A stretch of DNA of 54,768 nt from an uncultured Gemmatimonadaceae bacterium (GCA_963829055.1 CAWHHI010000015.1:1-54768); one strand, 5' to 3'. Positions 1 to 54,768 are shown, counted from the first letter of the stretch. Numbers and translations are program-made. The notes: generated by a model not told the origin, from the sequence alone.

Positions 1-159
1 GCTGTTGCTCGGCCTGTCGCGTGACCGCCCGATCGTCCACACGTGCCCGGTCTGCCACACACGCCGATTCGCTCGCCGCGTTATGCGTGCGTGGCGCTGT
101 CGGACGTGTGTCGACAACGGGCTGGCCGGCGAGCTGATCGCGACGCGAGTGAATGCCTG

Positions 160-3100
160 AGCGCGAGCTGTCCCGTTCTGCGACGGCAACGGTGCCGAGT
201 GGTTCCACTCGGCGCCGCTCGTCCGCGCGTTGTGGGATCGCTATCCGGTCACTCCAGGCCACGCGCTGATCGTCGCGCGACGCCACGTCGCCTCGTGGTT
301 CGACGCGACGCCCGCCGAGCGCGCCGCGATGCTCGACGCCGTCGACGCAGTCCGCGACGTCATCGAACGTCAACACTCGCCCGACGGCTACAACCTCGGA
401 CTCAATGTTGGCGCCGCGGCAGGGCAGACCGTGGATCACCTCCACCTCCACGTCATCCCGCGCTACGCCGGCGACGTCCCCGACCCTCGCGGCGGCGTCC
501 GCCACGTCCTCGCGCACTCGGGCAACTACCTCCTCACGCCTACCATAGAAGGGGCGCCTCACGACCGCGCGATCATCCGCGGTGCCGACGACCCGCTCCT
601 CCCGCACCTCGTCGCGCACCTCGATCACGCCGATCAGGTAGACATCGCCGTTGCGTTCACCATGGTCAGCGGCGTGCGCGAGCTCCAGGAGTACCTGCGC
701 GACGTGATCACCCGAGGCGGTCGCGTTAGGTTCCTCACCGGCGACTACCTCGACGTCACGGAGCCCGACGCACTGCTTCGCCTCCTGGACCTCGGGGAGG
801 GTGCCGAGCTGCGCATCTTCGAGAGCGGCGGCACCAGCTTCCACCCGAAGAGCTACATCCTGCGCCGAGCGGGTGGGTATGGGACGGCGTTCGTCGGCAG
901 CTCGAATCTGAGCCGCAGCGCGCTCCAGGCGGGCGTCGAGTGGAATTACCGCGTCGTCACGTCGCGCGACGGGCATGGCTTTCGAGACGTGTGCGACGCG
1001 TTCGACGCGCTGTTCACGGACCCGCGCACTCGCCCGCTGACGGCGGACTGGATCGAGACCTATCGCCGACGACGCACGCCGCCGCTCCCGCAGCGCACTG
1101 GCGTCGTGATCGACCCGCCACCGCCGATCCCGCTGCCGAATGCGGTGCAGGTCGAGGCGCTGAACGCGTTGACGGTGACGCGCGCGAACGGGAACGCGGC
1201 CGGCCTCGTGGTGCTCGCGACGGGACTCGGCAAGACGTGGCTCAGCGCGTTCGATACGTCGAACGCGAATGCGAAGCGCGTGCTCTTCGTCGCGCACCGC
1301 GAGGAGATCCTCGACCAGGCGATGCGCACCTACCGCGCCATTCGCCCACACGCGGTACTCGGCAAGTACACGGGTACTGAACGGTCGCCTGACGCAGACG
1401 TCGTCTTCGCGTCGATCCAGACGCTCGGTCGCGCGCGTCACCTGCGCCGCTTCGCGCCCGACGAGTTCGACTACATCGTCGTCGACGAGTTCCACCACGC
1501 GGCGGCGTCGACGTACCGGCGGCTCATCGATCACTTCACGCCGCGGTTTCTCCTCGGACTTACGGCGACGCCCGAGCGCACGGACGGCGCGAGCCTGCTC
1601 GCGTTATGCGGTGAGAACCTGGTCTACCGTTGCGATCTCGCGGACGGGATCAAGCGCGGACTCCTGTCTCCGTTCGACTACTACGGCGTGCCTGACGAGG
1701 TCGACTACGAGAACATCCCGTGGCGGAGCAATCGGTTCGACGAGGAGGAGCTGACCAACGCGCTCGCCACGACGTCGCGGGCCGAGAATGCGCTGGATCA
1801 GCTGCGGCGTCGGGGAGGGAAGCGGGCGCTCGCGTTCTGCGTGTCGCAGCGGCATGCGGACTTCATGAAGACGTTCGCTCGAAACGCCGGGTCTGAACGT
1901 GGCGGCGGTGCACTCGGGGCAGTCGAGCGATCCGCGCACGCATTCACTCGAGCGACTGCAGCGCGGCGAGATCGACGTGCTGTTCGCCGTGGACATGTTC
2001 AACGAGGGTGTCGACCTGCCGGACGTCGACACGATCCTCATGCTCCGTCCGACGGAGTCGCAGATCCTCTGGCTGCAGCAGTTCGGGCGCGGGCTGCGGT
2101 ATCGCCCGGAGAAGCGGCTCAAGGTCATCGACTACATCGGGAATCACCGCTCGTTCCTGCTCAAGCCGCGGACGCTGTTCCAGCTCGAGGGCGGCGACGT
2201 CGACATCACGCGCGCGCTGAACCTCATCGAGGTCGGGCGTGGGGCCGAGCTCCTGCCGCCTAACTGTTCGGTCACGTACGACCTCGAGGCGAAGAACATT
2301 CTGCGCGGTCTCCTCGAGGCGGCGCCGAGGGGCGATCTCCTTCGCACGTACTACGAGGAGTTCCGCGCGCGTACTGGATTCCGTCCGTTCGCCACCGAAG
2401 CGTTTCACGACGGCTACGATCCGGGCTCGGCTCGTTCGGGCTACGGCTCGTGGTTCCAGTTCGTGCGCGCGATGGGCGACCTGGCCGAAGCCGACGACGT
2501 CGAGGTGCGACTCCGTCCGCTGCTCTCGGCGCTCGAGACCACGCCCATGACCAGGAGCTTCAAGATGGTCGTGCTCTTGGGCCATGATCGCGGAGGATGC
2601 GTTTCCCGGATCGGTCTCGATCGAGAAGCTCATGGAACGCGTGCGCATCATCGCGCGTCGGAGCGCGCCGCTTCGTACGGAGTTTGGGGAAGCGCTCGAT
2701 GATGACGCTGCACTCCGGGCTCTGCTCGAGGAGAACCCGATCGACGCGTGGACGGGCGGGCGTGGAACGGGTGGCCAGAGCCATTTCCGCTACGAGGGCG
2801 GGCGATTCTCCTCGGCTATCTCGCTGCCGCCAAACCTCCGCGAGTCAGGCGCGGCGCTCGTGCGTGAGTTGGCCGAGTGGCGGCTTGCGCGCTATCTGCG
2901 GCGTGCGGGGGCGGCGGGTGGTGCGCCGCGCATTGTGTGCAAGGTGTCGCACGCCGGCGGAAAGCCGATCCTCTTCCTCCCATCGCGCGACCGGAATCCC
3001 GGCATCCCTGAGGGCTGGGTGGAAGTCACCGCGGACGGCGAGACGTATCAGGCGAACTTCGTGAAGATCGCCGTGAACGTCATGACGCGTGGCGCATCCG

Positions 3101-3691
3101 ACACGAACGTGCTGCCGGAGCTGATGCGGAAGTGGTTCGGGCCTAACGCTGGTCAACCGGGGACGACGTTCCAGGTCGTGTTCGAGCGGAGCGACGAAGG
3201 CTACGTCCTGTCGCCCGCATCGAACGAGCAGCACGACGGGGCCTCAGCTCTGGGACGCGGTACAAGCGCGACGAAGTGCCGAAGCTCTTTGGCTTCGAGT
3301 TCAAGGGTCGCGAGGCTCAGTCAGGTGTGGTCGAGAGGCCCGGGCTGATCTTGCTCTTCGTCACGCTCGACAAGACGGACATGCAGGAGGAGCACCGGTA
3401 CGAGGACGCCTTCCTCTCACCGACGGAGTTCCGGTGGCAGAGTCAGAATCGAACCGCGCGCGATAGTTCAGATGGGGCGGAAGATTCAGAATCACCGAGC
3501 GGAGGCGACGAAGATCCATCTCTTCGTCAGGACCGATGGCCAAGGTGGGCGGTCGCACGCAGCCGTTCCTGTACGCTGGGCCGCTCGAGTTCCAGCGGTG
3601 GGACGGCGACAAGCCGATCACGGTGTGGTGGAAGCTCAATTCGGCAGTCCCGCGCGAATTGAAAGACTCGTTGCGCCTGCCTCGGAAGTGA
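160..3691 (+). CDS. HIT + phospholipase-D nuclease + SF2 (DEXD/HelicC) helicase + DUF3427 fusion; SauUSI-like putative modification-dependent nuclease (several frameshifts; start approximate)
   Basis: Motifs across ORFs 230-2263, 1899-2702, 2584-3348, 3276-3662: PFC..., GQTVDHLHLHVIPR (HIT), FHPKSY...GSSNLS (PLD HxK), ATGLGKT, DEFHH, GLTATPER, DMFNEGVDLP, RPTES, QQFGRGLR, LFVTL...YEDAF...FRWQSQ (DUF3427). The last frame ends LRLPRK-TGA at 3691. Confidence 0.85.
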
Positions 3692-5091: not shown

Positions 5092-7226
5092 TCAATCCAC
5101 CCGTGCGTGCGCGCCGGGCACGTAGGCACAAAAGACGCCGGTGCGGATGCTCCGGTCGAGATGATCGCCTAACGTCGAGTGGTGTTCGCGAAGTCGACCA
5201 TCGCGGCCCGCACCGCCCGGGTCACACTCACTCTCGCGCGTTCCGACGCCGAGCCTGCGCGCCGATCGCGACCGCCGAGTCCGACCGCGCGCGACAGCTC
5301 ACGGATCAGGAAGTCCCGTTCAGTCTCCGCCTGCGCCTGACGCTCACTGTCCGCGAACGCCCGCGCCTCTTCGATATCCTCCTCGATCTCGGCGAGTCGC
5401 CGCCGGTACGCCTCCTTCGCTCGCGCGTCCAGCATCTCACCGGCGTCGCCTAACGCCGCTGACGTAGCCCCGGACTCGGTCGCCTGCGTCAGGTCCGCGG
5501 TCTGTCCGCGCTCGGCGGCCACCAGGTCGAGCACGTGAAACGCACGCCCGGGATCGGCGAGGAGTCGACCGATGTACCGCAGTCCCTTCGAATCCCGCAG
5601 GCGCACTGTCTGCCCCTCGAACGTCACGCACCAGTAGTCGCCCTCACAGCGGAATTCGCCGAGCTGCGAAGTGACGCTACGGGTGTCGCGCGCTAGATCC
5701 CTCCCTTCGTCGCTTGCGCTCCTCAGGGCAGGCGCTGACGCTCGGGATGACAACGTGCGGCCGCAGGCGTGCGTCGCGCGGTCTGCGTGATGCACGGCCC
5801 CTACGCGCTCGAAGCCTGATCGCGCGGCGCGAAACTCGAGCAGCGCACGCTCCTCGTCGCCTTCGTCACGGTGTGCTTGCGCGAGCCCCATACGCGCGAC
5901 CGCCGTCTCGTACGGAGCGCCGACCTCGTTCCAGAGATGCACTGCCTCCTCGAAGTCGCGCCGAGCCCCCACGACATCCCCCTCGGCCAGCCTAACGTTG
6001 CCACGCGCGGTCAATGCGCCCGCGGTGAGGGCCTTGCTGCCGAACAGGGTGGCGATCGTGCTCAGCTCGTCCGCCGCCCACCGCGCTCGCTCGAGATCAC
6101 CAGCCGCCAGCGCGATCTCCACCTGCGCCTCGAGGAGCGGCGCTCGGCGAAGCTCCGTGTTCGGCGGAAGCTCCTTCGATGGGAGTGCTGAGCGGGTGCT
6201 CGAGCGCATCCCGGATGGACGCCGCGGCCAGCGCGACATCGCCTCTCGCCAGAAAGACCAACGCGAGGCCCGGCTGCGGATCCCACCCGGCGTGGTGAGC
6301 CTCGAGGAACGCCTGCTCGGCGCCCTTCGACGTCGCCCTTCCGCAGCCGGATGCGGCCGAGCTCCGTCAGCGGCCATCCGAATTCCCGTCGCAGGTAGGG
6401 GCGCAGCTCGTCGCAGGCCAGGAGCGCTTCGCGCTCCGCCTCGTCGCTGGACCCGCGCAGGCGGAGGATCTCGGCGCGGTGAACGCGGCAGCGTCCGTGA
6501 ATGCTTCCCACCGATCGCCCCTGCCGCCATCGCTCCATGGCCTGCGTCCACTCCTCGGCCAGGTCGTACTGCGCGACCGCCTGCAGCGCACATACGAGCT
6601 CGCAGTACACGACTCCGGTGAGGAAGGGATCGAGCTCGCCGGAGACCGTGACGACGGCCGCTTCATCGAGCAGCTCGAGGCCCTGTTGGACGTCGCCATC
6701 CAGGATGAGGCTGCGCGCCTCCGCGATTCGGCCGATCGCGGCCGCGGCGGGATCGTACTTCGTGCCCAGCTCGATCGCGCGTCGGGCCCACTGGCGAGCT
6801 GCGGGGAAGTCACCCGAGAGCAGCCGTTCATAGTTGCGGGCGACCGCCACCCACGCGTGCACCGGCGTCTCGTCGTGACCCTCGAGGAGACGCTCCGCGC
6901 GTTTGATCCAACCGCGGACGGGTGCCATGAGCGCCGTGTCGAACAGCAGGTGCATGGCGACGCGCGCCGCCGCACCCGCGGCCGCTAGGCGATCGCCCGC
7001 GCGCACGGCCTGCGCGTGCGCGCGCTCCCACACCTCGAGCGACACATCGAGATGACCCGCCGCATACGCGACGTCGGCGAGCAGTGGAAGATCCGCGCGG
7101 TCCAGGGACTGACCCCCATGACCCGCATCCGCTTCCGCGAACAGCTCGTGGGCCTGTTGCCAGTCGCCCCGCGATGCGGCCTCGCGCGCCCTGGTCTCCA
7201 GCGGCTGTAACAGCAGACGTTACCAC
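5092..7226 (-). CDS. TPR/MalT-like helical transcriptional regulator with C-terminal DNA-binding region (frameshifted)
   Basis: Joined from ORFs 6062-7045 and 5169-6593 plus a final frame ending HLDRSIRTGVFCAY. Motifs GRCRVHRAEILRLRG, GAPYETA, FRCEGDYW, KGLRYIGRLL..PG, ERARVSVTRAVR. AGGAGG lies upstream of GTG 7226. Confidence 0.7.
5695..5753 (-). repeat. Half copy of the GTCATYCCGAG palindromic repeat family inside a coding linker
   Basis: Minus strand ttgtcatcccgagcgtcagcgcctgccctgaggagcgcaagcgacgaagggagggatct closely matches 46591-46650. Confidence 0.8.
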
Positions 7227-7340: not shown

Positions 7341-8233
7341 ATGGAACGCGCAAAGGTGAATGGCGTCGAGCTGGAGTATGAGGTGAAGGGATCGGGCGAA
7401 CCGGTATTGCTGATCAGTCCCGTCGTCGCGGGAGCGTTCGTGCCGTTCCTGTCGGCACCGGCGCTCGTCGATCGCTATCGCCTCATTCGGTACCACAAGC
7501 GCGGCTGGGGTGGAAGCACGCACTACCGCTCCGCCCGTGCGCATCGCGGATCACGCGGCGGACGCCGCCGCGCTACTCGACCACCTCGGCGTCTCGCGCG
7601 CGCACGTCGCGGGACACTCGAGCGGTGGCTCGATCGCCTTGCAGCTGGCCTTCGAGCGTCCCGACCTCGTTCACACGCTGGCGCTCCTGGAGCCGTCGTT
7701 GTTCAGCGTGCCGAGTGCGCAGGCGTTGTTGGAAAGAGCGGCGCCTTCCGTGGAGGCTTACCAGAGCGGCGATCACGAGGGAGCGGTCGTCGGCTTCCTG
7801 AGTCTCGTGAGCGGCCTCGATCGAGAGACGTGCCGCGGCGTGATCCAAGAGAACGTTCCGGGTGGCATCGCGCAGGCGATCAGCGACGCAGACACCTTCT
7901 TCGGCGTCGAACTGCCAGCGGTCGGTGCGTGGGAGTTCGGGCGCGACGAGGCGGCGGTGATCACGCAGCCGGTGCTTTCGGTGCTCGGGACCGAAACCGA
8001 GACGTTGTGGGTGGAAATCGCTGGCCTGCTTCGATCGTGGTTCCCGCAGGTCGAGGAGCTTCGCCGTCGACGGCGTGGGTCACTTGCTGCAGATGCAGCG
8101 TCCGGAGCCGGTTGCGCGAGGACTGGCCTCGTTCTTGGGTCGCTACCCAATGTCGTCCGTGGAAAACGGCAAATCACACGCGCGAGCTCGAGCCGTGGTT
8201 GGCGCGCCGTTGAGCGGTGCGGTAGGCGCCTAA
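7341..8233 (+). CDS. Alpha/beta fold hydrolase (frameshifted)
   Basis: NGVELEYEVKGSGEPVLLI, YHKRGWGGS, GHSSGG nucleophile motif, GVGHLLQMQRPE in the final frame ending TAA 8233. Confidence 0.85.
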
Positions 8234-8261
8234 CGGCTCACGGAGTAGAACCCCCGGCGCA

Positions 8262-8435: not shown

Positions 8436-8587
8436 GGACGTCGACGAAGTGGAGAGCGATGCGCATCGGCCAATCGGCAAAGAACGCGGAATGCAATGCG
8501 TTAGGCATGAAGCTGTGACGCTCGGTACCTGGTAATCGTGTCGCGTGTGACGTCTACATCGGCTGTCCATCTTATTGGAGGAATGCA

Positions 8588-9161: not shown

Positions 9162-12100
9162 ATGCCCGATTCGCAGCACCGCCTTCTCTTCACCGGCCCG
9201 TTCCACGCCGACCACCGCGCACGTGCCCTCGACGCCCTGTGCGCCCGGGCTGACGCCAACGCCCGCGACATCCTTTATATAGTCGCGTCCGCGGCGGCCA
9301 AGCGCCGGGCAATCTCTGACCTGCTGGCCCGCCGCGACGCGATCTTCGGGTTCCACGTCATTACCCTCCGCGGCCTCGCGGCCGAGCTCGCGCGCCGGGC
9401 TCACGCCAAGGAGCCCGCCCGCGTGAGCGGCGTCGTCGATGAGCTGCTCGTCGAGCGCGAGATCCGCTCTGCGTCCGGCAGCCGATTTCGCGGCGCCACG
9501 CCCGTTAGCGGCCTCGCTGCGAAAGCGGCATCCACGATCGACCTCCTCGAGCGAAACGGCGCCACCCCTTCGGCGTTTAGGGGTTTCCTCGACCAGTCTG
9601 CCAATGTGGGCGACGGAGCACGCATGCTGGCGCAGGCATGGGGCGGTCTCGCGGTCAAGCGGCCCCACTATGGCCGAACGGAAGCCGGCATGCTCGCCGA
9701 GGCTGTCGAGTTGCTCCAGGTGAACGCCGGTGTTCTCAATGGGCTCGACGTCCTCGTCCTCGAGGACCTGTCGCTGCTGACTGCAATGGAGTGCGCGGTC
9801 GTCCGCTCGCTCGTCGCACGTGCGCCGGCGCACGTGATCGCGTCGCATGGATACGTTGGGCAGCTCGCGGATGCGCCGTCCTCGCGTTCCCTGCGAAGTC
9901 TTCGCGAGCTCGCGTCCTGGACTGAGACGCGTTGTGCACCGATCGACGACAATCGGACCGCATTGCTCCGCCGACTCTTCGCTGCGTCGGACACGACTTC
10001 TGCTGTCGCGTCGTCGAATGGCACCGTGCCCGCGATCCGCATGACCCGGCTCGAGTCCAACGGCGACCTCGGCGAGGTTCGCACCGCGGCGCGCGTCGTT
10101 AGGCGACACCTGGATGCAGGCGTCGCCCCGGAACACATCGCGCTCGTCGCCCACGGCGCTGGGGGGCGCTATCGTGAGCTCGTCCGCGAGGTCTTCGGCG
10201 CCGCCAGAATCCCTGTCGCCGTCGCGCTTCCACGAACGCTCGCCGAGACGGGGATCGGGAGTGTGCTGCTCCAGCTCCTCGAGCTGGCGATCGTTCCCGA
10301 ACGCATGACTCGCGAGACGTCACTCGCCGTCGCCCGTGCGCCGCACGTGGGCCTTCGCACGCGGCAGCGCCGACCGTCTTCATCAGCAGGTCGTGAACGC
10401 AGGGTTTCTCGGGTTGGACGGATGGACCGAGCTGGCCACGAAGACGTTAGGCGAGCACGCTGCGAACCGCGTGAATCGTCTCAAGCGCGCGGTCGCCACG
10501 GCGCGTAGCGGCTTCGAGTCGGTGTCGTCCCCAGCACAGGCGGCGCGAGTGGTCCGGCAGCTCGCGAAGGAGCTTCACCTCCTGAACAACGCATACTTCG
10601 AGCGCCGGCGCTCGGCTCGTAGCTCGTACTCGCCGCAGCGCGCCGATGGCGTGGACGCCCTGTCGTCGATGACCGCGCTCGCGGTACGCGAGGACAGCCT
10701 GGCCTGGGAAGCGATCGTCACCGACAAGAACTCGGTGCTCGATACCACCGTGCCCACGATGCTCGAGATCGATCGCGTCTCGGCAGGCAAGTCCGGGCTG
10801 GAATACGCTGCAGCGTGGCTCGCGATGCTCACTCGCGTCATGCACTCGGACACGGTGACGCCTGAACGCGCGCCGGCGCACGCGGTGCAGTTCCGTGGCA
10901 CGGGCCCGGGCTGCGAAGCCCCGGCGCGCGTCACGATCGTGCTCGGCCTTCTCGAGAAGATCTTCCCGCGCCAACCACGCCAGGATCCTTTCCTCGACGA
11001 CGAGCTCCGGACTGCGCTCTCGGCTTCGTTCGGCTGGCAGCTGCCGACAACCGTGGACGCGGTCGACCGCGAGCGCGAATGCTTCATCCGCGCGATCTCC
11101 TCTGCCACCGAGTCCCTCTACCTGTCGTACGCGGCGACTGATGCCGAGGGGAGGCCGGGAGTCAGGTCGTTCTTTGTCGATGACCTGCAGGCCGCGGTCG
11201 GAGAACAACATCCGATCGGCGTCGAACACTCCGGCGCGACCACGGCGATTGCCAATGTGAGCGATGCGGTGAGCGCGAGCGGACTGCTGACCGCGGTCTC
11301 GCACGACGTGTGGCAGTACCTCCCGCGCACGACCGACGTGACTGGGCGTCGCGGGGCGGCGTTCCGCGCGCTCGATGCGTTGGCGCGTCGCGAGCAGGAT
11401 GTCTCGCCCGTTAGGCACGGGCGTCGCGTGAGCCAGACGCCGGATCTTGCGGGCGTGCTGCCCGTGGATGCGCCGCATCTCACGCTGCGACTGAGCGCCT
11501 CACAGCTCAAGACGATCTCGCACTGCACGTACGAGCACTTCGTCGATAAGGTACTGGACCCGAGCTCCATCGCCGCGCCGGAGTACAACGCGCCTGACGA
11601 AAGGCAGCCTCATACATGACGCCATCATGCACTGGGCGACGGCGCTCGATGGCTGGAACGCGAGGTGAGGCAGCGCTGACGGAGATCGACGAATGGGTAC
11701 GCGGCCGGGTCGAGCAGTGGTCGCCAGCGCAGCGCGGCACCACGAAGACGGCGCGAACGATGGCTGCGGATCTCGAGCGTCTGAACGAGTTCCTCCGCGA
11801 GGAGCTACGCGACGCGGAGACGCCTGGCGTCGGGCGTCCGACGTTCGCCGAGCTGGCATTCGGCGAAGAGCCGAACGCTGCGCATGGTCCCCGTGATGCG
11901 GCGTCGCGCGTCGAGACATTTCCCCTTCAGCTCAAGACGTCGACGGGCCTGGTGACGGTACAGTTCCGCGGGTCGATGGATCGCGTGGACGTCGTCACCG
12001 TCGACGATAGGCAGTACGCGGTCATCATCGATTACAAGAGTGGCAAGAATTCCGAGTACTACGCAAACGCCATGATGAGGGGCGAGGACCTGCAGCTTCG

Positions 12101-41856: not shown

Positions 41857-42210
41857 TCACACTCGTGCACGCTGGGCGCTAACAGCTGTCACGGTCGCCC
41901 GAGGGGTCTCGCGAATCGATTTGTTAGGCAGGTCGGGAGCGTTAGGCACCGCCCGCGCACGATCGGCCATCCCGTACGCGGCGGAGTAGACGGGCTGGCC
42001 GTCCCTGGCTACCAGCACGACGCCGGAGAACGCGCCGGCACGCGCACGCGCGTCGAGCCATGGCCCGAGCTCGCGGCGGAGCCGGTCGCCGAGCGTGTCG
42101 GCGGACGCGGTGATCGCGGGGGAGAGCAGGGCGGGCCGTTCGACCGAGGTGGGTGACGACGCGCCGCCCAGCAGTGTGGCGGCGAAGGGAACGAAGACGT
42201 AGTGTCGCAT
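41857..42210 (-). pseudogene. N-terminal fragment of a beta-lactamase-family serine hydrolase
   Basis: FSGVVLVARDGQPVY..AYGMADR...PN; breaks off before the SxxK motif. Confidence 0.7.
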
Positions 42211-42361: not shown

Positions 42362-43514
42362 ATGTATTTCAAGCAAATCCTGGATGAGCGCTGCGGCTGC
42401 GCCTCATACCTGATCGCCTCGCGGCAGTCGCACGAGGCCGCGATCGTCGATCCGTCCATCGACACCGCGCAGTACGAGCCGCTGCTGCGAGAGCGCGGCT
42501 TCACGCTGCGCTACGTGATCGACACGCACGTCCATGCCGACCACGTGTCCGGCGCACGGCGGCTCGTCGCCGACTATGGCGCCGAGCTGTGTCTGCACGA
42601 GTCAGCCAGAGTGACGTATCCGTTCCGGCCGCTCGCCAACGGCGAAGAGCTTCCGCTCGGTCAGCTCAGGCTGCGCATCCTGCACACGCCCGGGCACCGG
42701 CCGGAGCTCATCTCCGTTCTCGTCGTGAATCCACAGCGCAGCCCCGAGCCGTCGATGGTGCTGACTGGCGATTCTCTGCTCGTCGGCGACGTCGGCCGCC
42801 CCGACTTCGGCGGCGGTGACGCGTCCGCGCAATTCGAGAGCATGTCCAAGCTGCTCCGTCTGCCGGACTGGGTCGCGGTCTTTCCGGGACACTTCGAGGG
42901 CCCGTGCGGAAAGGGCATGTGCGGCCGCCCGAGCACGACGATCGGCTTCGAGCGGCTGTACAGTCCGCTGCTGCACATGGACCGCGACCCGTTCGTGGCC
43001 ACGCTCAACAACGGCATCCCGGCCCGTCCGCTGAACATGACGGCGATCGAGGCGACGAACCGCGGCGTCGCCGACATGCCGTGGGCGATGCTGACCTCAT
43101 CGCCCGAGGTGGAGGAAGTCGGCATCGATGCGGTCGACGCCGCGCCTAACGCGGTGCTGCTCGACGTGCGCGAGCCGGAGGAGTTCGCGCGTGGTCACGT
43201 GCAACGCGCGGTGAACATCCCGCAGGCGGAGCTTGCGACGCGGCTCGAGGAGATACCGCGCGATCGTCCCGATCCTGACGATCTGTCAGACGGGGATGCG
43301 CTCGCTCCGTTCGGCGCAGTTCCTCCTGCAGCAGGGGTTCGATCACGTGTCTTCGGTCGCCGGCGGGACGGCGGCGTGGCGAGCGGCGGGTCGTCCGGTA
43401 GAGGCAACGGAGGCAGACGGCGAGCCGCTGCGCATTACGGATTCCGAGTGGGCGCATGCCGGCGCGCTCAGGACGAGCACGTTGTCATCGTTGTCATCCC
43501 GAGGAACGCAGTGA
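42362..43514 (+). CDS. MBL-fold (persulfide dioxygenase-like) plus rhodanese fusion (frameshift near 43268)
   Basis: DTHVHADHVSG, TPGH, TGDSL.VGDVGRPD, PGH; LLDVREPEEF..GH, CQTGMRS, GG..AW. Confidence 0.88.
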
Positions 43515-43652: not shown

Positions 43653-44936
43653 ATGACCATCACTCGTCGCGATCTTCTGGCTGGTGCAGCGGCCGCCGTA
43701 GGTACCGCCGCCGCCCGCGCCCTCACCGCGCAGTTGCCATCGGGGAGCATCATGCCACACGCGCCCGCTATTCGTCCGCCGGATTTCCCGCGGAAGGCCG
43801 ACTTCGCCATCCCCGCCGGCCTCACGTACATCAACGGTGCGTACACGCATCCCATGCCCGTCGCCGCGGCGGCCGCCATGCGCCGGTATGCGGACGCGCG
43901 CGCGTCGTTCCAGACCGATGACGTGACCGCGGGTACGGTGAGCGCCGGCGTCAAAGCCGCGTTCGCGCGACTCATCAACGCGAAGCCGTCGGAGATCAGC
44001 TACGTCCCGAACACGAGCACCGGCGAGAACCTCGTCGTGAACGGGCTCGAGATCGCGGAGCAGGCGCGCAACGGCATCAACGTCGTGACCGACGCGCTGC
44101 ACTTCGACGGATCCATCCTCAACCTGCAGCTGCTGAAGCGCGATCGCGGGCTCGATCTGCGCATCGTCATGCCGCGCGACAACGGCTCGCGCATCGACCT
44201 CCGCGACATGGAGAAGGTCATCGACCGCAAGACGAAGCTCGTCGAGATCTCGCTCGTCGCGATGTACAACGGGTTCCAGCACGATCTCAAAGCCGTGTGC
44301 GATCTCGCGCACGCGAACGGCGCGTACGTCTACGCCGACATCATCCAGGCCGCGGGCGCGTCACCGATCGACGTGAAAGCGACCGGCGTCGACTTCGCCG
44401 CCTGCGCGAGCTTCAAGTGGTTGATGGCCGACTTCGGTCTGGGATTCCTGTACGCGAAGGAGGAGTTGCTCGATCGCGTCATCCATCGCTCGCAGCGCGG
44501 CTACCACTCGTCGCGCGACATCGTGACGCACTTCCTCCCGTACGACCCGCCGGCCCCGACGCCATTCACGTGGGAGCTCGGCACCGATGCGAGCTCGTAC
44601 TTCGAGGTCGGCAGCAACGCGTGGGGCCCCATCTCGGCACTGAGCCAGTCGCTGCCGTACATCGAGCAACTCGGCGTCGCGAACATCGAGGCGTGGCGTC
44701 AGCCGATGCTCGCGCGACTGCGTGAAGAGATGCCGCGACTCGGCTTCACTCCCGTGACGCCGGCAGGCACACGCTCGGCGCTCATCACGTTCACGTTCAA
44801 GGACCGCGCGCCCGTGGTCGAGAAGCTGAGGAAGGCGAACGTCAACGTGCGCGTCGGCCAGAACTTCATCCGCCTGTCGCCGTCGGTCTACAACGACATG
44901 GGCGACGTCGATCGACTGCTCGGGGCGCTCGCCTAA
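43653..44936 (+). CDS. Class V aminotransferase / cysteine desulfurase-like PLP enzyme with Tat signal
   Basis: TRRDLL Tat motif; NTSTG, ADIIQAAG, ASFKWL, IRLSPSVYN. Confidence 0.88.
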   Translation: MTITRRDLLAGAAAAVGTAAARALTAQLPSGSIMPHAPAIRPPDFPRKADFAIPAGLTYINGAYTHPMPVAAAAAMRRYADARASFQTDDVTAGTVSAGVKAAFARLINAKPSEISYVPNTSTGENLVVNGLEIAEQARNGINVVTDALHFDGSILNLQLLKRDRGLDLRIVMPRDNGSRIDLRDMEKVIDRKTKLVEISLVAMYNGFQHDLKAVCDLAHANGAYVYADIIQAAGASPIDVKATGVDFAACASFKWLMADFGLGFLYAKEELLDRVIHRSQRGYHSSRDIVTHFLPYDPPAPTPFTWELGTDASSYFEVGSNAWGPISALSQSLPYIEQLGVANIEAWRQPMLARLREEMPRLGFTPVTPAGTRSALITFTFKDRAPVVEKLRKANVNVRVGQNFIRLSPSVYNDMGDVDRLLGALA

Positions 44937-45226
44937 CGCGGCGACGCTCTCGGGCCAACGTGAAATCACCGCGGGACGTGGAGTGCGCCGGCAGCCTCGG
45001 CAAGCATCTCAGACGAAGGCGAGCGGATGCGGGAATCGAACTGATTGATTCCGTGAACAGGCGGAGGCTCCTGACGAGCCGCTAATGTGGTGCGGTACGC
45101 CGAACTGTCGTTACTCGGAGTCATCCGGCCGATCCGGCGCATCCGTTCGCGTCTTCGCTGACGCTCGGGATGACCGACAACGCCCGCCCCTCACGTTTCG
45201 TCCCCGGCCGGTGTCCCTTTACTGGC

Positions 45227-46053: not shown

Positions 46054-46569
46054 ATGACTGTCCCGCCGTCGCCCACCTCGGCTGCGTCCGCGTTCGTCAT
46101 CCGCCCTCTCGCCACCGACGACGAAGCTCGCGTCTGCGCCGAGATCATGTCGACCACCGAACCATGGCTGACGTTCGGTAGATCCTTCCAGCAGTCGCTG
46201 GAGATCCTGCGCGACCCCGCTCGCGAGGTGTACGTCGCGCTCGACGCGCCTGAGGGCGTCGCGTCAGGCGTCGCGGGATTCGCGATCCTGGTCATGGGTG
46301 GTGCCTTCGTCGGCTACATCCAGTCCCTCGCCGTCCGCGACGCCTGGCGAGGTCGCGGCCTCGGCACGGCCCTCATCGCGTTCGCCGAGCGGCGGATCCT
46401 CCGCGAGACGCCTAACGTGTTCATCTGCGTGTCGTCGTTCAACCCAGGCGCTCGGCGTCTCTACGAGCGGCTGGGGTACCAGGTCGTGGGCGAGCTACGG
46501 ACTACATGGTTCGCGGCCATTCGGAGATCCTGCTCCGGAAGACGACCGGCCCGCTGGCGGAGCACGTGA
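46054..46569 (+). CDS. GNAT acetyltransferase (3' frameshift near 46500)
   Basis: YIQSLAV...RGRGLG..L, VSSFN..A.RLYERLGY. Confidence 0.85.
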   Translation: MTVPPSPTSAASAFVIRPLATDDEARVCAEIMSTTEPWLTFGRSFQQSLEILRDPAREVYVALDAPEGVASGVAGFAILVMGGAFVGYIQSLAVRDAWRGRGLGTALIAFAERRILRETPNVFICVSSFNPGARRLYERLGYQVVGELRTTWFAAIRRSCSGRRPARWRST

Positions 46570-47125: not shown

Positions 47126-47875
47126 ATGCAACGATCGATCGTCGTCACAGCCGTGATGTTGGCCACCGCACTCGCGGCGGACGCGGCGCACGCCCAGTTC
47201 CCACCGGAACGCGCGACGAACCTCAAGGTGCTGCCGACGAGCATCTCCATGGATTCGCTCGTCAACACGATGGCCGGTTTCACTCGCGCGCTCGGTGTGC
47301 GGTGCGGCTACTGCCACGTCGGCCCCGAAGGCGGGTCACTCGATCAGTACGAGTTCGCGAAGGATGAGAAGGCGACCAAGGAGAAGGCCCGCGCGATGCT
47401 GCGTATGGTCGCCGCGATCAACGACGATCATCTCGCGAAGCTCGCGATGCGACGCACGCCGCCGATTTCCGTGACGTGCGCGACCTGTCACCGCGGCATA
47501 GCGCAGCCCCGCCCACTGCAGCAAGTCCTGCTCGGTGCCTACGACGCCGGAGGAACGGATTCGCTCGTCAACGCGTACCGTGCGCTTCGCGCGCGCTACT
47601 ACGGTGCCGCGGCGTACGATTTTGGCGAGGTCCCCCTCGCGGACGTCGCGTCATCGATCGGCGAGCGCGGCAAGCTGGCGGACGCCGTCCGCATCCACGT
47701 GCTCAACACGGAGATGTCTCCGACTTCCGGATTCGCGCTCCGCCAGGCATCAGCGGCACAGCTGGCGTTAGGCGACACCGTGGCCGCGATCGCGAGCCTC
47801 GAGCGTGCGCTGACGCTCAACCCTAACGATGGTCAGTCTAAACGGTCGCTGGACACGTTGCGGAAGAAACCGTGA
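47126..47875 (+). CDS. Diheme c-type cytochrome (reaction-centre cytochrome c-like fold) with TPR
   Basis: Signal peptide; NLKVLP, M..F..ALGVRCGYCH, K..AR.M..MV..IN, VTCATCHRG. Confidence 0.8.
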   Translation: MQRSIVVTAVMLATALAADAAHAQFPPERATNLKVLPTSISMDSLVNTMAGFTRALGVRCGYCHVGPEGGSLDQYEFAKDEKATKEKARAMLRMVAAINDDHLAKLAMRRTPPISVTCATCHRGIAQPRPLQQVLLGAYDAGGTDSLVNAYRALRARYYGAAAYDFGEVPLADVASSIGERGKLADAVRIHVLNTEMSPTSGFALRQASAAQLALGDTVAAIASLERALTLNPNDGQSKRSLDTLRKKP

Positions 47876-48358: not shown

Positions 48359-51300
48359 TCAGCTCACGCGTTCGAGCGCGAGCGTGAACGTCGATCCCGT
48401 TCCAGGCTCGCTCTCCACCGTCAGCTCGCCACCCATGCCGCGCGCCAGGTCTCGGCTGATCGCCAATCCGAGCCCTGTCCCCTCCGCCGGCTGCGCGAGC
48501 GTACGATGCAACTGCACGAACGGCTCGAAGATCGCTCCCCGGCGATCGACCGGGATGCCGATGCCCGTATCACCCACGCGAATGTAGACTCGAGCCTCAT
48601 CGTGCTCGCACACGACGTGGACGCGACCACCCGGCGGCGTGAACTTCACCGCGTTCGCCAGAAGGTTCAGCAGCACCTGCCGAACCTTCTCGGCATCCGC
48701 GCGCGCGACGATGCTGCCGAACACGGGCTCGCACACGAACTCGAGTTGCTTGGCCGCGAGCTGTGGGCGGATGAGCGACTCGAGATCCCCGAGCAGCTCC
48801 GTCACCGGAACGTTCGTCACCCGATACTCGACGTGCCCCGCCTCGAGCCGCGCGAAATTCAGGATGTCGTTGATGACGCTCAGCAGGTGACGCTGACTGC
48901 GCATGATGCGACCGAGGTCCTCCTGCTGCTCGGACGTCGTCGGACCGCGGAGCCCAAGGCTCATCAACTCGGCGTATCCCGAGATCGCGTTGAGCGGCGT
49001 CCGGAGCTCGTGGCTCATCGTCGCGAGGAACTGCGTCTTGGCGCGATTCGCCTCCTCCGCCGCCTGCCGTGCGCTGTGCTCCGCTTCCAGTAACCGTACG
49101 CGCTCGAACGCCTGCGTCGCCTGATCGCCGATCGACGCGATGTAACCCCGCACGTCGTCGCTGAACACACGCCGCTCGTCGAAGCCTAACGCCACAGCAC
49201 CCAGCGGCTTGCCAGTGGACGCGATCAGCGGCAGCGCCGCCCACGCTTCCTGCGTGACCGTGCGCCCATCGGCAGGCCACGCGGGAAATCGCTGCTCGAA
49301 CGCGGCTCTGTCGGGGAGGAACACCGGCTCCTGCGAACGCACGACCTCGGCGAGCGGCGTCTCACTATCGATGGCGATACGATCGAACCGCCGGCGACTC
49401 CACGTCTCCACACCGCGCTCATCCATCATGACGAGCTCGGGCCGTCCGTCGCTCCCGTCCTCGACACGGTAGATGGCAACGCGCGGCGTGTGAACGATCT
49501 CGCGCAGGTTCGACACCACGACCCGTGCGATCTCCTGCTCGGAGTTTGCCTCGCCGAGCGCGGCCATGATCGCCTGCAGGCGTTCCGTGCGCTCGCGCGC
49601 GATCTGTTCCGCTTCGAACGCGAGCGCGCGGGCAAGCGCCTGACCGCACTGCGCGGCGAAGAGCTCCATGAACTCGCGCTCGTCGTCCGGGAGATCGCGT
49701 ACGTCCCTCCACGACAGCGTGATCAACGCTCGCACCTGGCTGTCGGTCGCGATCGGCAGCACGACGGCGGTCTGCGTGCCCGCCTGTTCGAAGTACGGCG
49801 CTGCCGCCGGATAGCGGGTGCGCGCATCGTCGAGCGATTCGATGAACACTCCGCGGGCGGTCGCGACGGCGTCTCGCGTGGCGGCGACGGTCGTGCGGAG
49901 CGAATACGACCGCCACGCCTGGAGCACGTCCGCGTCGTAGCCGAACGCGGCCACGAAGCGCGTCGTGTCGCCGTCCTCCTCGATGAGCGACACCGTACCC
50001 CGTTCCGCACCGAACGCTTCGGCTGCCTCGGCGAGTATTGTTTCGGCGACAGCCATCGCCGTCGCGGCACCAGTCAGCCGCGCCGTGAGTGCGTAGAGCC
50101 GATCGGCCACGCGCGCCGAGCGCTCGGCGCGCGCGCGCGCGGCAACGGCCTGGCGATGAAGCCGAGCATGTTCGACGGCCACCGCCGCCCGCCGCGCAAG
50201 CTCGATCGCGAGTGGCAGGTCACGCTCGGAGTATCGACGACCCGATTCCGCGGACACGAGTGTGAGCGCACCGACGGCTGTGTCGCCAACGACGAGCGGC
50301 ACGATCATGGCCGACCGGAGGCCGAGCGTCCGCGTTATGCGCAGATGCTCGTCGTCCACCGCGCCGGCAACGAGCATCTCGTCGGTGATCTCGCTGACGA
50401 GCTCGGGTCGACGCGTGCGCAACACGTTAGGCACGCCGGTCGTCGCGTCGGGTCGTGGCGGGTATCGTCGGTTGAGCTCCCGCGCCCACGTGACCTTCGT
50501 CGGATCGACGTGTGCCACCGCCAGCTGCCGAGGGGCGTCTCCGTCCTCGACGATGTGCACGGAGCACCAGTCGGCGAGCTGCGGCACGACGATCTGCGCG
50601 AGCTGCTCGAGCGTCGTCTCATAGTCCAGCGACGACCCCAGCACCTCGCTCGCGCGGCCGAGGTAATGCTCGGTCTCCTCGGCTCGCTTGCGGGCGGTGA
50701 CGTCCACCCATTGTGTCGCGAGACCGCCATCGGCGAGCGGAAAACACGATAGCGTCAGCCACTCGCCGCGTCCCGGATAGAACGCCTCGAACGTCACCGG
50801 GATCCGGTCGGCCGCCGCGCGACGCATCTCGCGCTCGAACGCCGTGCCGATGATGTCCGGATACACCTCCCACAGCACGCGCCCAATGGGTGGTTGATTC
50901 GAAGCGCGCGGCGACTGTCGGAAGACCGCGGCGGCAGCGTCGTTGATGAAGAGGAAGCGCCACTTGGCGTCATGCACGACGAACGGATGCGCGATGCTGT
51001 CGAGGATGCCCTTCGTGAACAGCTCGGCCGCTTCAGCCGCGGCAGTCCGATCAGCAAGCTCCTCGGTGGACTGCTCGAGCTCCTCTGAGAGTGCCTGCGA
51101 TTCCTCGAGCTGCTGTTCCAGCTCCATCGCCTGCGACTCGAGCTCGTGGGCAAGCTCCGCGTTCTGAGCCGCTGCCATAGCCGCGGAGCGACGAGCGGTT
51201 CGCGCCGCCGTCGTGAGCATCGAGACGGCGGTGGACGCGAATAGAAACGCCGCGAGTGGAACGAGATCTTCGGGAGTGGCCAGCGCGATCTTACCTGGCG

Positions 51301-51646: not shown

Positions 51647-52575
51647 GCGGCGAGCACCCTCGCGACGACGGCTGTCACGTTATCCGATCCACCGGCCGCG
51701 AGCGCCATGTCGATGAGCGATCGACATCCTGCCTCCACGTTAGGCGTGCCGGTGAGCACCTCGCGGATGCTGGCGTCGGACACGTGCTTCGTTAGACCAT
51801 CGGTGCACAGGAGCAGCGTGTCTCCGCGCTCGAGGCGGATGAAATCGACGGCCGGCGTCATGTCCCGCGCGCCGATCGCGCTCGCCAGCACGTTGTACAG
51901 CCCGGCCTGCACGGCCTTCTCCTTGGGCATCCCATGCTCGGAGACGAGCACCTCGCCAACCGTCTGATCACGGGTGAGCGGACGCATCGTGTCCCCACGA
52001 AGATGGTAGACGCGGCTATCCCCGACATGAACGATGTAGGCGAACGGCCAGACGACCATCGCCAGCGTGAGCGTGGTCGCAGGTCCGCCTCGCGTCTGCA
52101 GCCGGAACGTCTCGACGAGGTGATCGTGCGCGCGATGCGCCGCCGTGCGCAGGTGTTCCGGGAAGTCCTTTCCTTGATCGGCGCCGTAGCCGTTGTACGC
52201 ACCAACCACCTCGCCGAGGTATTCGACGATCGTCGCGACGGCGATGGCGCTCGCGACGCGTCCGCCCGCACTCCCGCCCACGCCGTCGGCCACCACGTAC
52301 AGGTACGCGCGAGGTCCGGACAGGCGGTCGAAGACGTGCGTGTCGTCGAGGTTCGTCTGCCGGATCTGCACGGCGCGCTGGAGGGCCGCGGTCACGAAGT
52401 GGTCTTCGTTCACCTTCCGCACGTTGCCCACGTGCGAGATCCCGAAGCTCTCGATCAGGCGCCGCACGTCGGCCGTGGTGCCTGACGAGGCGACTGCTGG
52501 TGGGAGAGCCGGCTCCGGGCGCGGGATGATGCCAACTGCGCGGTCCGTCCCGATGGGTAGCTGTGCGTCGGTCAT
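51643..52575 (-). CDS. PP2C-family Ser/Thr protein phosphatase
   Basis: GNVRKVNED, VADGVGG, HVGDSRVY, LLCTDGL, GGSDNVT. Confidence 0.93.
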   Translation of the reverse strand: MTDAQLPIGTDRAVGIIPRPEPALPPAVASSGTTADVRRLIESFGISHVGNVRKVNEDHFVTAALQRAVQIRQTNLDDTHVFDRLSGPRAYLYVVADGVGGSAGGRVASAIAVATIVEYLGEVVGAYNGYGADQGKDFPEHLRTAAHRAHDHLVETFRLQTRGGPATTLTLAMVVWPFAYIVHVGDSRVYHLRGDTMRPLTRDQTVGEVLVSEHGMPKEKAVQAGLYNVLASAIGARDMTPAVDFIRLERGDTLLLCTDGLTKHVSDASIREVLTGTPNVEAGCRSLIDMALAAGGSDNVTAVVARVLAA

Positions 52576-52787
52576 CGCGTGTCCTCGGTGCACCTGCGTT
52601 ATCGTGGCGGCGGCCGCACGGCGCACACCGACTATGGGCCCCCCAAACTATGACACCGGCACGCGGGCGGCTATGCTCGGCCCGTAGCCCGGACTCCGGC
52701 TGCCCCCGTGGTGCCGTACGCCCGGCGGTGATAAGCTGACCGCGCTTTGCACGCTTCACATTGCTTCTTGCTTCCTGGGGGAGACTC

Positions 52788-54768
52788 ATGCCGTTCGACA
52801 TTCCGGGCGTTTGGCCCGACGAGAGCCACACCGCGATCCGCTCCGCGCCCGTCGGGGTCATCAAACTGCGCATCCGCTGTTTCGAGGATTCGTGCAAACC
52901 GGGCGCGATGACCGTGCGCGTCGTTGGCGCGACCACCGGAAGGGTCATCGCCCAGGGAACGGTTACGAGCTCGTCGACCAAGAAGCTCCACGAGCTTCCG
53001 GTGCTGGGCTCGCGATCACGGGCGAAAACGAACGTCCGCGTGCTGTTCTCGTGCGGCGGCGAAGAGGCGGAAGGGTGGGCAGGCCAGCTGTGGATCGGGA
53101 CGGCCGAGACCCCATCATCACCGGGCGACGGGCGGACTCCGGCGCGGGGCGCACGACCGGCTGCGATGAAAGCCGCCGCCTCACCCCGATCGCGCGCCTT
53201 GGCCAGCAAGCCGGGGTCCACCGTCGCTTTGGAGGATCCGGCAATGCCCGGCACGACAACGGACGACGCCGACGACGACACCCCAAAGACGACTCGTCCA
53301 AGTGCCTGGCGGCGGCGAGAGCCGGAACCGGCGACCACGGCGGCCGAGAATATCGGACGCAAGCTCGACGCGGTGCCAGATCGGGTGGACACACGCGACT
53401 GGTTCTTCCAGCCACGCCTAACGCCGCTGCCGACGTCGCTCGTGAACTGCGATCACGTGCCGGCCATTCTCGATCAGGGTAACGAGGGTGCGTGCACCGG
53501 GTTCGCGCTGGCGGCGGTGGTGAACTACCTGCTCGCGCATCAGACCGTGGATCGCAAGGTGAGTCCGTACATGCTCTACGAGCTCGCGCGAAAATACGAC
53601 GAGTGGCCGGGCGAGGGATACGAGGGATCGTCGGCGCGAGGCGCCATGAAGGGCTGGGTGCGCCACGGCGTGTGTCTCGAGAAATCGTGGACGAAGAAGG
53701 ACAAGGGCGTCAGCTGTCTCCGGAAGACGCTGAAGAAAGGGTTCACCATCAGCGACGAGGCGCGCGCCACGCCAGGCGGCGCGTTCTACCGTGTGCAGCA
53801 CGATCAGGTGCGTGACATGCACGCCGCCATCGCCGAGGCGGGCGCGATCTACTGCACGCTCATGGTGCATTCCGGGTGGGACGATCCGGGCGGAGACGCG
53901 AAGGCGCCGCGCGCACCGGTGACTGGCTCCAATACGATCGAGAGCCTGCCGATCATCCAGCGTCGCGGCCGCGCGACGGATGGTCATGCGATCGCGATCG
54001 TCGGCTACACCGACGTGGGCTTTGTCATCCAGAACTCGTGGGGACCGACGTGGGGCGAGAAAGGGTTCGCGCTCCTGCCGTACGAAGACTTTCTCATGCA
54101 CGCCACCGACGTCTGGGTGATGCAGATTGGCGTGCCGCTCAAGATCGATCTCTGGGAGCAGGGAAAGACGTTCGCCGACTCCGCGGCCGGCTTACCGCGC
54201 GCGCATCAGGCGGTGCCGCTCGACGCGATTCGTCCGTTCGCGGTGGATGTCGGTAACAACGGCGAGCTGTCCGACACCGGCGACTACTGGACGACGCCCG
54301 ACGACATCGAGCACCTGTTCGCCGTCACGATACCGGAAGCGACGAAGGCGTGGCGTCGCCGGCGCATCATGCTCTACCTGCACGGCGGCCTGAACGACGA
54401 GCGCTCCGTGGCCGATCGCATCATCGCGTTCCGCGAGGTGATGCTCGCGAACGAGATCTATCCGATCCACATCATGTGGGAGTCCGGTGGTGTGGAGACG
54501 TTAGGCAACATGCTCCGGGACTATCACACGGATGTGGATGACCGCGCCGGCGTCGGCGAATGGCTCAAGAAGCTGCGCGACAACCTCGTCGAGGCGAAGG
54601 ACCGATCGCTCGAGGTGACGCTGGCGCGACCGGGTGGTCTCATGTGGCGCGAGATGAAGGAGAACGCGCGGCTCGCCTCGGAGCATCCGGACGGAAAGGG
54701 CGCGATGCAACTGCTCACGACGCGCGCGCGGAAGGCGGTCTCGAGTCTCGCCGAGACGACTCGTGGGT
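52788..54768 (+). CDS. Papain-like C1 peptidase fused to a downstream hydrolase-like domain (runs off the window end; absent from the ORF track)
   Basis: Read by hand from ATG 52788 (GGGGGAG RBS): LDAVPDRVD.RD, DQGNEGACTGFA, GHAIAIVGY, IQNSWG, then LYLHGGLNDE. Confidence 0.85.
   Translation, partial: MPFDIPGVWPDESHTAIRSAPVGVIKLRIRCFEDSCKPGAMTVRVVGATTGRVIAQGTVTSSSTKKLHELPVLGSRSRAKTNVRVLFSCGGEEAEGWAGQLWIGTAETPSSPGDGRTPARGARPAAMKAAASPRSRALASKPGSTVALEDPAMPGTTTDDADDDTPKTTRPSAWRRREPEPATTAAENIGRKLDAVPDRVDTRDWFFQPRLTPLPTSLVNCDHVPAILDQGNEGACTGFALAAVVNYLLAHQTVDRKVSPYMLYELARKYDEWPGEGYEGSSARGAMKGWVRHGVCLEKSWTKKDKGVSCLRKTLKKGFTISDEARATPGGAFYRVQHDQVRDMHAAIAEAGAIYCTLMVHSGWDDPGGDAKAPRAPVTGSNTIESLPIIQRRGRATDGHAIAIVGYTDVGFVIQNSWGPTWGEKGFALLPYEDFLMHATDVWVMQIGVPLKIDLWEQGKTFADSAAGLPRAHQAVPLDAIRPFAVDVGNNGELSDTGDYWTTPDDIEHLFAVTIPEATKAWRRRRIMLYLHGGLNDERSVADRIIAFREVMLANEIYPIHIMWESGGVETLGNMLRDYHTDVDDRAGVGEWLKKLRDNLVEAKDRSLEVTLARPGGLMWREMKENARLASEHPDGKGAMQLLTTRARKAVSSLAETTRG

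Follow-up and report, generated by a model that had tools for sequence, protein, structure and literature searches.

Which process fills a bacterial chromosome with thousands of copies of a single eight-letter word? The question is raised by a stretch of 54,768 nucleotides from an uncultured Gemmatimonadaceae bacterium (GCA_963829055.1, CAWHHI010000015.1:1-54768; called the window in the following, always at its full length), in which the 8-mer CGTTAGGC and its reverse complement GCCTAACG (core GTTAGG/CCTAAC) recur far beyond expectation. The window is contig C15 of the source genome, G000, whose assembly comprises 7.78 Mb in 20 contigs at 85.9% completeness and 3.95% contamination and whose nearest neighbours by RecA belong to the Gemmatimonadota, order Gemmatimonadales. 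To our knowledge, hyper-abundant genome words are understood in just two bacterial families, by way of the DNA uptake sequences (DUS) of the Neisseriaceae and the uptake signal sequences (USS) of the Pasteurellaceae, and are unexplained in cyanobacteria, where the word is the highly iterated palindrome HIP1. The octamer described here is a third, very strong case, found in a soil phylum that has received little study and is for the most part uncultured.

Abundance of the octamer and probable selection or drive at the DNA level

The window holds 37 exact octamers, 21 on the plus and 16 on the minus strand, against a mean of 1.08 and a maximum of 5 in 100 dinucleotide-preserving shuffles, and 53 GTTAGG cores where 5.79 are expected. 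Every one of the remaining 16 cores is an octamer with a single end letter changed (CGTTAGGT seven times, CGTTAGGG five times, TGTTAGGC three times and AGTTAGGC once). The initial annotation, made by hand from the window, had counted about 53 cores and about 37 full octamers split nearly evenly between the strands; both counts are confirmed, with an octamer at every coordinate it listed, and only its assumed GC content of about 68% needs correction to the measured 66.1%. The genome-wide Markov comparison that it had proposed extends the picture to the whole of G000, where 5,004 octamers (2,547 and 2,457 by strand; one per 1.56 kb) face an expectation of 60 under an order-3 model with the word masked beforehand, an enrichment of about 83-fold. 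CGTTAGGC ranks first among the over-represented 8-mers of the genome, the next-ranked being its own overlapping shifts, and contains 70% of the GTTAGG, 56% of the TTAG and 24% of the TAA occurrences in G000. The word is present on 20 of 20 contigs and in the six other genomes of the genus, with 2,501 to 5,112 copies in each of the seven, so that the enrichment escapes the confinement to one contig or one assembly that the initial annotation had named as fatal to its proposal.

The gene calls came from a crude caller based on codon scores (7,389 genes, 77% coding), on which the division into genic and intergenic copies depends. The coding fraction is low partly because of assembly frameshifts such as that in rpoB on contig C19 (L135), whose open frame of 1,151 aa compares with about 1,550 aa in three relatives and which probably reflects indel errors in the assembly. 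Within the called genes the word is read as NCG-TTA-GGC (1,323 copies), G-CCT-AAC-G (933), xGC-CTA-ACG (608) and C-GTT-AGG-C (454), the full set of four frames in which its internal stop codon is not read. Intergenic DNA holds 1,279 more copies, and 402 others straddle a gene boundary. The densities in spacers and genes are comparable, at 0.72 and 0.55 per kb. When synonymous codons were shuffled within each gene, which preserves the proteins as well as the per-gene codon usage, a mean of 157.5 copies (range 134-176 in 10 runs) stood against the 3,328 genic copies observed, and the enrichment thus persists under the codon-preserving null that the initial annotation had chosen in advance as its own refutation test. 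With the neighbouring bases held constant as well, the shuffle retained 1,370 copies; this stricter version was uninformative, because the within-gene exchange groups become so small that most codons stay unmoved.

The codons that the word employs are the rarest ones, TTA making up just 1.5% of the Leu codons in G000, and the 1,323 TTA-GGC and 933 CCT-AAC readings bear out the earlier remark that it imposes rare codons on genes. It occupies 1,328 of the 5,989 [SPTA]-L-G sites (22%), 934 of the 1,631 x-P-N-[VADEG] sites (57%), 608 of the 3,111 [SRCG]-L-T sites (20%) and 458 of the 4,320 x-V-R-x sites (11%). Along genes the metagene profile is flat except for a two- to three-fold peak at, and immediately 3' of, stop codons. 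Among stops, 243 of 926 TAA (26%) and 196 of 1,915 TAG (10%) lie within the word; these shares match those of all such trinucleotides genome-wide (24% and 9%), which makes the stops a side effect without special use. Four window stops had been attributed to the word, of which those at 25490, 26117 and 44936 do end open reading frames (ORFs) of at least 150 aa, as does an additional one at 5169, while at 8233 just a 90-codon open frame ends.

Beyond the eight letters the flanks are unconserved, none of their positions exceeding 0.13 bits across the 5,004 copies, and therefore the word is not a repeat element; neither conserved flanks nor a hairpin beyond the core, as expected of repetitive extragenic palindromic (REP) sequences or miniature inverted-repeat transposable elements (MITEs), was found over the same copies. 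Its commonest frame does encode the common dipeptide Leu-Gly, as a by-product of codon or peptide usage might. Such a by-product, or a short mobile repeat of the MITE or REP type, is nevertheless a practically negligible explanation in view of the codon shuffle, the occupancy of four frames and of spacers, the featureless flanks and the insertion-free alignment to relatives.

The history of individual sites was followed in alignments to five congeners at 74-84% nucleotide identity. The octamer is retained in 13 of 19 site-by-congener comparisons, against 4,359 of 25,311 (17.2%) for other 8-mers in the same alignments, a difference whose binomial p of 1e-6 is overstated because the congeners are kin. 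Across four word-rich genera the rpoB-rpoC alignment has 17 columns with the word, 8 of which recur in at least two genera. Where relatives lack the word they have CGCTCGGC or GCCTCACG in its place, a silent swap of the Leu codon; the alignment to these synonymous codons is gap-free, and site creation by insertion was not seen. The alignments show that the word arises in place through point substitutions, mostly synonymous, and then stays put across species. Survival of the codon null, the use of four frames plus spacers, the synonymous origin and the retention of orthologous sites together support selection or drive operating at the level of DNA and not on proteins, as the initial annotation had suggested.

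Spacing, distribution and possible readers of the word

What might read the word? We tentatively favour the view that CGTTAGGC is a genome-wide 'self' tag, similar to a DNA uptake sequence, that is read by a putative sequence-specific protein. Such a protein would recognize the word as double-stranded DNA in either orientation. Segments with at least one copy would be favoured, most plausibly when DNA of close kin is taken up and recombined, and new copies would spread by biased transmission (molecular drive), possibly aided by selection. Since another copy a few hundred bases away or closer would bring no gain, copies would be kept apart. If this holds true, the word would give a first indication that transformation in the Gemmatimonadota favours kin. 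We count in its favour a 49.6-kb block of foreign-looking housekeeping genes in G000 that carries no copy at all.

Orientation bears on one alternative. Judged by local GC skew, the locally G-rich strand carries the word 1,399 times and the opposite strand 1,365 times (50.6% G-rich); adjacent copies lie on the same strand in 52% of cases genome-wide, and the coding strand is slightly favoured (1,782 vs 1,541). Strand runs that seemed to be present in the window (23 of 36 neighbours on the same strand) are non-significant. The missing skew relative to the G-rich strand rules out behaviour like that of Chi or of the FtsK-orienting polar sequences (KOPS). A polar signal recognised by RecBCD/AddAB or FtsK, to which a frequent 8-mer and the presence of the recombination gene RecA would be suited, is consequently highly improbable, all the more so as the 83-fold enrichment is far above the few-fold level of Chi.

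The spacing of the copies is far from random. Starting from one copy, the hazard of encountering another is 0.10-0.17 per kb at distances below 100 bp and then rises, reaching about 0.8 per kb only at 800 bp and beyond, and the smallest gap between octamers within the window is 271 bp. When occupancy was re-dealt over 15,051 synonymously accessible coding sites, 168 +/- 13 pairs less than 100 bp apart were expected and 27 observed; below 300 bp the figures are 458 +/- 19 and 210, below 500 bp 707 +/- 23 and 487. Copies repel one another within about 500 bp, with a deficit relative to two nulls. A process acting site by site would leave sites independent of each other, and the repulsion fits instead a benefit conferred per segment of DNA.

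One-letter variants of the word are tolerated unevenly. C1>T is enriched 17-fold, C8>T 21-fold, C8>G 14-fold and G6>T 9-fold, and variants at G2, A5 and G7 are at or under expectation (0.4-0.9 fold), a pattern that looks like binding specificity and unlike the RRRY degeneracy of the integron core discussed below. In G014, the densest genome with 1.25 copies per kb, T or CT often precedes the word (L083, L084); TCGTTAGG covers 40 of 59 copies there and may be a slightly extended local form.

Spacing and variants also bear on a repair- or methylation-driven origin as proposed for HIP1, in which a methyltransferase and a sequence-specific mismatch nuclease would convert near-matches site by site. 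Hyper-abundance and positional conservation do recall HIP1, and the variants at the three inner positions (0.4-0.9 fold) are scarce as if corrected. Yet C-to-T changes at both ends are enriched 17-21 fold and not depleted, copies repel where independent sites are predicted, the word is non-palindromic, and Vsr was found in 5 of 58 genomes and in none of the 12 richest, all of which renders this origin quite doubtful.

Further constraints come from the distribution of the word, which was counted in two samples, 41 relatives and 401 genomes drawn from the phylum. In both samples hyper-abundance is restricted to one order, where family f1 accounts for about 13 genera with it, f2 for one and f3 for two; none of about 140 genomes from other families and classes shows it. 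The highest density is reached in G014, with 6,360 copies in 5.1 Mb. Word-rich lineages intermingle with word-poor ones on an RpoC tree of 24 taxa, at least six state changes are required and the approximately unbiased (AU) test rejects a single word-rich clade (p 1.2e-13), a result that stands for one gene and for groups named after inspection of the tree. The tallies include the unpublished genomes G013, G086, G125, G204 and G459, of which the first four were counted and are word-poor; no conclusion rests on them. Sister lineages of which one is rich and the other poor in the word, G305 and G306 for example, are natural experiments, by which the reader should be findable through comparative genomics. 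One member of genus g46, G294, has 66 copies vs 3,479-4,141 in its three congeners; it yields two RpoC matches on different contigs and may be a mixed bin or a misplaced genome.

Several observations weigh against an uptake tag. Every word-rich lineage, across all three families, uses the identical word, although DUS and USS differ between genera. A possible second word or dialect, GTAGACGG/CCGTCTAC, conspicuous in locus L008, turned out to be a local heptamer tandem repeat that is hyper-abundant in 0 of 401 genomes; CCGTCTAC was the only candidate dialect tested, and the k-mer survey of word-poor genomes covered samples of 36-80 kb. Inverted pairs of the word acting as terminators, as in Neisseria, were not found in G000. 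Of the competence genes, G000 carries ComEC, DprA, a secretin and an HHH_3 (ComEA-type) domain, but these are shared by word-rich and word-poor genomes alike: ComEC occurs in 40 of 41 relatives, DprA in 54 of 58 genomes, and secretin and HHH_3 domain in all five genomes tested. The ComP family of DUS receptors (PF16732) has no match in G000, G001, G005 and G014, and its sole match above the cut-off lies in the word-poor G016; given the fast divergence of pilins, a distant ComP analogue is conceivable. Literature searches on transformation or uptake sequences in the Gemmatimonadota returned nothing relevant, and no report on competence in the phylum was found. Finally, the even spacing and positional retention would equally fit an intracellular binding site, and the match to the integron core lacks an explanation under the uptake reading.

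Some candidates were dropped along the way. DprA seemed to discriminate in a five-genome test, where it is absent from the word-poor G306, but failed over 58 genomes, and none of IntI, ComEC, DprA and Vsr co-varies with the word. A literature search with the raw word gave only primers and unrelated sequences, and no published description was found in the literature searched. As for the heptamer, the repeat at L008:4319-4440 consists of two facing tandem arrays of CCGTCTA adjoining recA in a Gemmatimonadales metagenome-assembled genome and is a purely local signal, within which CCGTCT resembles the Neisseria DUS core. TCGTCTAT was seen in G007, with 9 copies in 80 kb.

The intracellular alternative supposes that an abundant chromosomal protein, be it a nucleoid organiser, a loader of recombination or repair factors or a self marker in defence, binds the word without any transfer of DNA, and that selection maintains roughly one site per 0.5-2 kb. 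The 13/19 conservation of positions, the repulsion below about 500 bp, as though each bound site covers a stretch of DNA, the position-specific tolerance of variants, the absence of copies from the foreign-looking block and the lack of a specific tie between the word and competence are all in line with it. On the other hand, no candidate protein was identified, and close genera entirely without the word, together with the repeated changes and the rejected single word-rich clade on the RpoC tree, are hard to reconcile with a core chromosomal function. Density is moreover flat over genes and spacers and the word is neither polar nor regional, as the chromosome signals KOPS, Chi and matS are. On balance we regard such a site as somewhat unlikely.

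A different lead, overlooked by the initial annotation together with the attC arrays of relatives, comes from the letters themselves. Two accounts describe attC boxes R'' = RYYYAAC and R' = GTTRRRY and a double-stranded attI R box bound by the integrase IntI (PMC3053210, PMC12901181), a third lists the Gemmatimonadota among integron-carrying phyla (PMC8618304), and work cited in PMC12901181 reportedly shows integrases acting on attG sites that are widespread in genomes. GTTAGGC matches the core GTTRRRY and GCCTAAC the inverse core RYYYAAC; by its letters, the word is an integron core site. In arrays of the relatives G027 and G025 (L106-L110; G027:C95, C80 and C43; G025:C3) the octamer recurs every ~550 bp, nearly all copies of an array lying on one strand (22 of 23 in L106), with no ORF above 400 aa and no tandem repeat. 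Each array octamer terminates a canonical attC of the form GCCTAAC...GTTAGGC, giving 40 distinct sites of 88-133 nt, and one array adjoins an IntI fragment. What had looked like a polar signal in these two genomes, one-strand copies with a ~550-bp period, thus proved to be integron cassette arrays. The 40 sites sort into two or three sequence subtypes, and the arrays are large, chromosomal and located in word-poor relatives.

G000 has an IntI of its own at C20:208008-208985 (265.7 bits, cut-off 265), beside which attC-like sites ending in the octamer are found (C20, ~119-209 kb; mostly minus strand, with two plus among them). In this IntI Arg stands in place of the first His of the HxxR motif. 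A truncated IntI N-terminus at C4:2850-3281, considered as a stand-alone reader, looks like a gene fragment. Strict attC patterns gave 2 sites in G000 and looser ones 12. An inverse core lies 45-140 nt upstream at 74 of 5,000 sites, below the 163 at a control distance, and 4 of the 74 pass an attC-like fold filter (R box paired, at most -0.30 kcal/mol per nt), so that at most about 1% of the G000 copies have an attC context. As a class the copies do not form the imperfect inverted repeat R''-L''...L'-R' (57-141 bp), nor, genome-wide, same-strand arrays next to intI (52% same-strand) such as those of the relatives.

These data allow the integron-linked alternative to be weighed, in which an integron integrase or a relative of it would read the word and the copies would be attG-like docking sites for cassettes or integrase-binding boxes. 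The letter match to core, inverse core and attI R box argues for it, and so do the octamer-ended attC sites with the adjoining IntI fragment, the IntI of G000 with its neighbouring attC-like sites, the occurrence of IntI above the curated cut-off in 24 of 41 relatives, the use of one word in all positive lineages of three families and the reported genomic attG sites. The presence of IntI does not follow the abundance of the word, however, a full-length copy occurring in 8 of the 13 genomes strongly rich in the word and in about 13 of the 25 poor in it. About two thirds of the G000 copies are genic, including those in rpoB and rpoC, where insertion of a cassette would kill, the upstream inverse cores fall short of the control, and the variant profile departs from GTTRRRY (0.65 fold for A-to-G at the first R, 0.41 fold for G-to-A at the third). 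We therefore rate a direct link to integrons as unlikely.

There is a slim chance that both leads meet, namely that an uptake or recombination reader in some Gemmatimonadales is tuned to the 7-8 bp cut by integron integrases, with the word abundant as an R box. Kin DNA and cassette arrays, with one copy per ~550 bp, would then be preferentially imported, and chromosomes would be seeded with thousands of integrase-recognisable boxes, tying transformation to the capture of cassettes. If the identity with the integron core is not due to chance, two major routes of gene acquisition would be linked.

Sites in the window and further features of the genome

All four reading frames and the spacers are represented in the window. 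Copies read as NCG-TTA-GGC lie in plus-strand genes at 10445..10452 (+), 16963..16970 (+), 22548..22555 (+, VWA gene), 23784..23791 (+, WYL gene), 26609..26616 (+, a short ORF), 33106..33113 (+), 34105..34112 (+, TPR gene), 47766..47773 (+, cytochrome c gene) and 54499..54506 (+, peptidase C1 gene), the copies at 33106 and 34105 not being retained in the congener G001. The same frame occurs in minus-strand genes at 5448..5455 (-) and at 49184..49191 (-) in a GAF histidine kinase gene, the latter copy being retained in 2 of 3 congeners. G-CCT-AAC-G is used in plus-strand genes at 3141..3148 (-), 15536..15543 (-, PD-(D/E)XK nuclease gene), 30876..30883 (-, 5' end of a DinB-family gene) and 31931..31938 (-). 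Minus-strand genes carry it at 10097..10104 (+), 12176..12183 (+, weakly called gene), 39664..39671 (+, histidine kinase gene; alignment gap in G001), 41940..41947 (+, short ORF), 50425..50432 (+, the same GAF histidine kinase gene as at 49184; retained in G001) and 51738..51745 (+, PP2C gene; not retained in G001). C-GTT-AGG-C is found in a minus-strand gene at 5990..5997 (-) and in a plus-strand gene at 11409..11416 (+), xGC-CTA-ACG at 53416..53423 (-) in the plus-strand peptidase C1 gene that also holds the 54499 site. The copy at 43144..43151 (-), in a plus-strand metallo-beta-lactamase/rhodanese gene, is retained in 3 of 4 congeners, the fourth having a one-letter variant.

Stop codons are supplied by the copies at 5167..5174 (-), whose TAG ends the minus-strand ORF 5169..6593; at 25488..25495 (-), which serves two convergent frames, TAA ending the plus-strand ORF 24240..25493 and TAG the minus-strand ORF 25490..26014; at 26115..26122 (-), whose TAG ends the minus-strand ORF 26117..26569; and at 44931..44938 (-), whose TAA ends a plus-strand aminotransferase gene (43653..44936) and which is retained in 3 of 3 congeners. 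The copy at 8228..8235 (-), where the 90-codon frame ends, is intergenic by the gene calls. Also intergenic are those at 8499..8506 (+), 17735..17742 (+), 18200..18207 (+), 27044..27051 (+), 32388..32395 (-), 32664..32671 (+; retained in G001) and 46410..46417 (-; retained in 3 of 3 congeners).

Among the end variants, CGTTAGGT is located at 724..731 (+), 14365..14372 (-), 15937..15944 (+), 29561..29568 (+), 30554..30561 (-), 37524..37531 (-) and 39449..39456 (-), where G001 has the full octamer; CGTTAGGG at 22024..22031, 24490..24497, 32193..32200, 34370..34377 and 47821..47828 (all -); TGTTAGGC at 19095..19102 (-), 20852..20859 (+) and 41922..41929 (+); and AGTTAGGC at 2258..2265 (-).

The window spacers contain a separate repeat family (21579-21714, 23107-23233 and 35297-35433; also 48097), made of inverted CGCTCGGAATGACA pairs about 125 bp apart that enclose AGTCGAGGAATC. 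The two 12-mers occur 669 and 372 times genome-wide, and the family looks like a MITE- or REP-like element unrelated to the octamer. Defence-like genes are abundant in the window (230-2260, 3710-4303, 12310-16046, 23258-25458 and 34636-35238) and comprise a HIT-PLD-ResIII helicase fusion, two Uma2 nucleases, a UvrD helicase beside a PD-(D/E)XK nuclease, two WYL/WCX regulators and a VWA protein.

The longest word-free stretch of G000, C6:5440-55037 (L103-L105; 49.6 kb, GC 69.9%), harbours second copies of chorismate synthase, DAHP synthase, peptidase M17, FtsK and TrpB, which are 47-56% identical to the other copies of the genome, TrpB reaching 74% over one short piece; a D5_N/RFX primase-like gene sits at its left edge. 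A large foreign island and a chimeric assembly join are the two alternatives for this block. The word is a sharp marker of native DNA, which flagged this 50-kb foreign or chimeric block in the assembly.

Comparison with known systems

Chi and KOPS octamers share the length and the chromosome-wide spread of the word, which differs from them in lacking strand skew and in an enrichment tens of times stronger. HIP1 (GCGATCGC) of cyanobacteria is a hyper-abundant palindromic 8-mer that occurs about once per kb in genes and spacers and has a link to a methyltransferase. Length, density and the occupancy of genes and spacers agree, but the likeness to HIP1 drawn by the initial annotation fails on palindromy, as CGTTAGGC differs from its reverse complement, and Vsr was not found in the 12 richest genomes. 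With integron attC and attI sites the word shares the letter-for-letter match to GTTRRRY/RYYYAAC and the position at the end of attC in the arrays of relatives, unlike these sites, 99% of the G000 copies lack an attC hairpin, partner box and array, most are genic, IntI does not co-vary with them and their variant tolerance differs from RRRY.

The resemblance to DUS and USS, likewise proposed at the outset, stands in density, strand symmetry, missing polarity, uneven variants and even spacing; it does not extend to a ComP-type receptor, which was not found in the four genomes searched, nor to the competence genes, which do not discriminate. The word further departs from DUS and USS in having no inverted-pair terminators, in its 8 letters without an extended consensus, in that no dialect was found with the one candidate tested and in its patchy presence and absence within one family. 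One copy per 1.56 kb falls in the range of USS and DUS. For uptake sequences, one study gives even spacing, no orientation bias and a share of 65% of H. influenzae copies inside ORFs (PMC1939737). As a candidate member of the family, the word matches a DNA uptake sequence on every feature that can be tested on sequence: it is short and non-palindromic, occurs about once per 1-1.5 kb, favours neither strand and shows no polarity relative to replication, occupies genes as well as spacers, originates by point substitution, and displays over-even spacing together with a biased set of single-mismatch forms.

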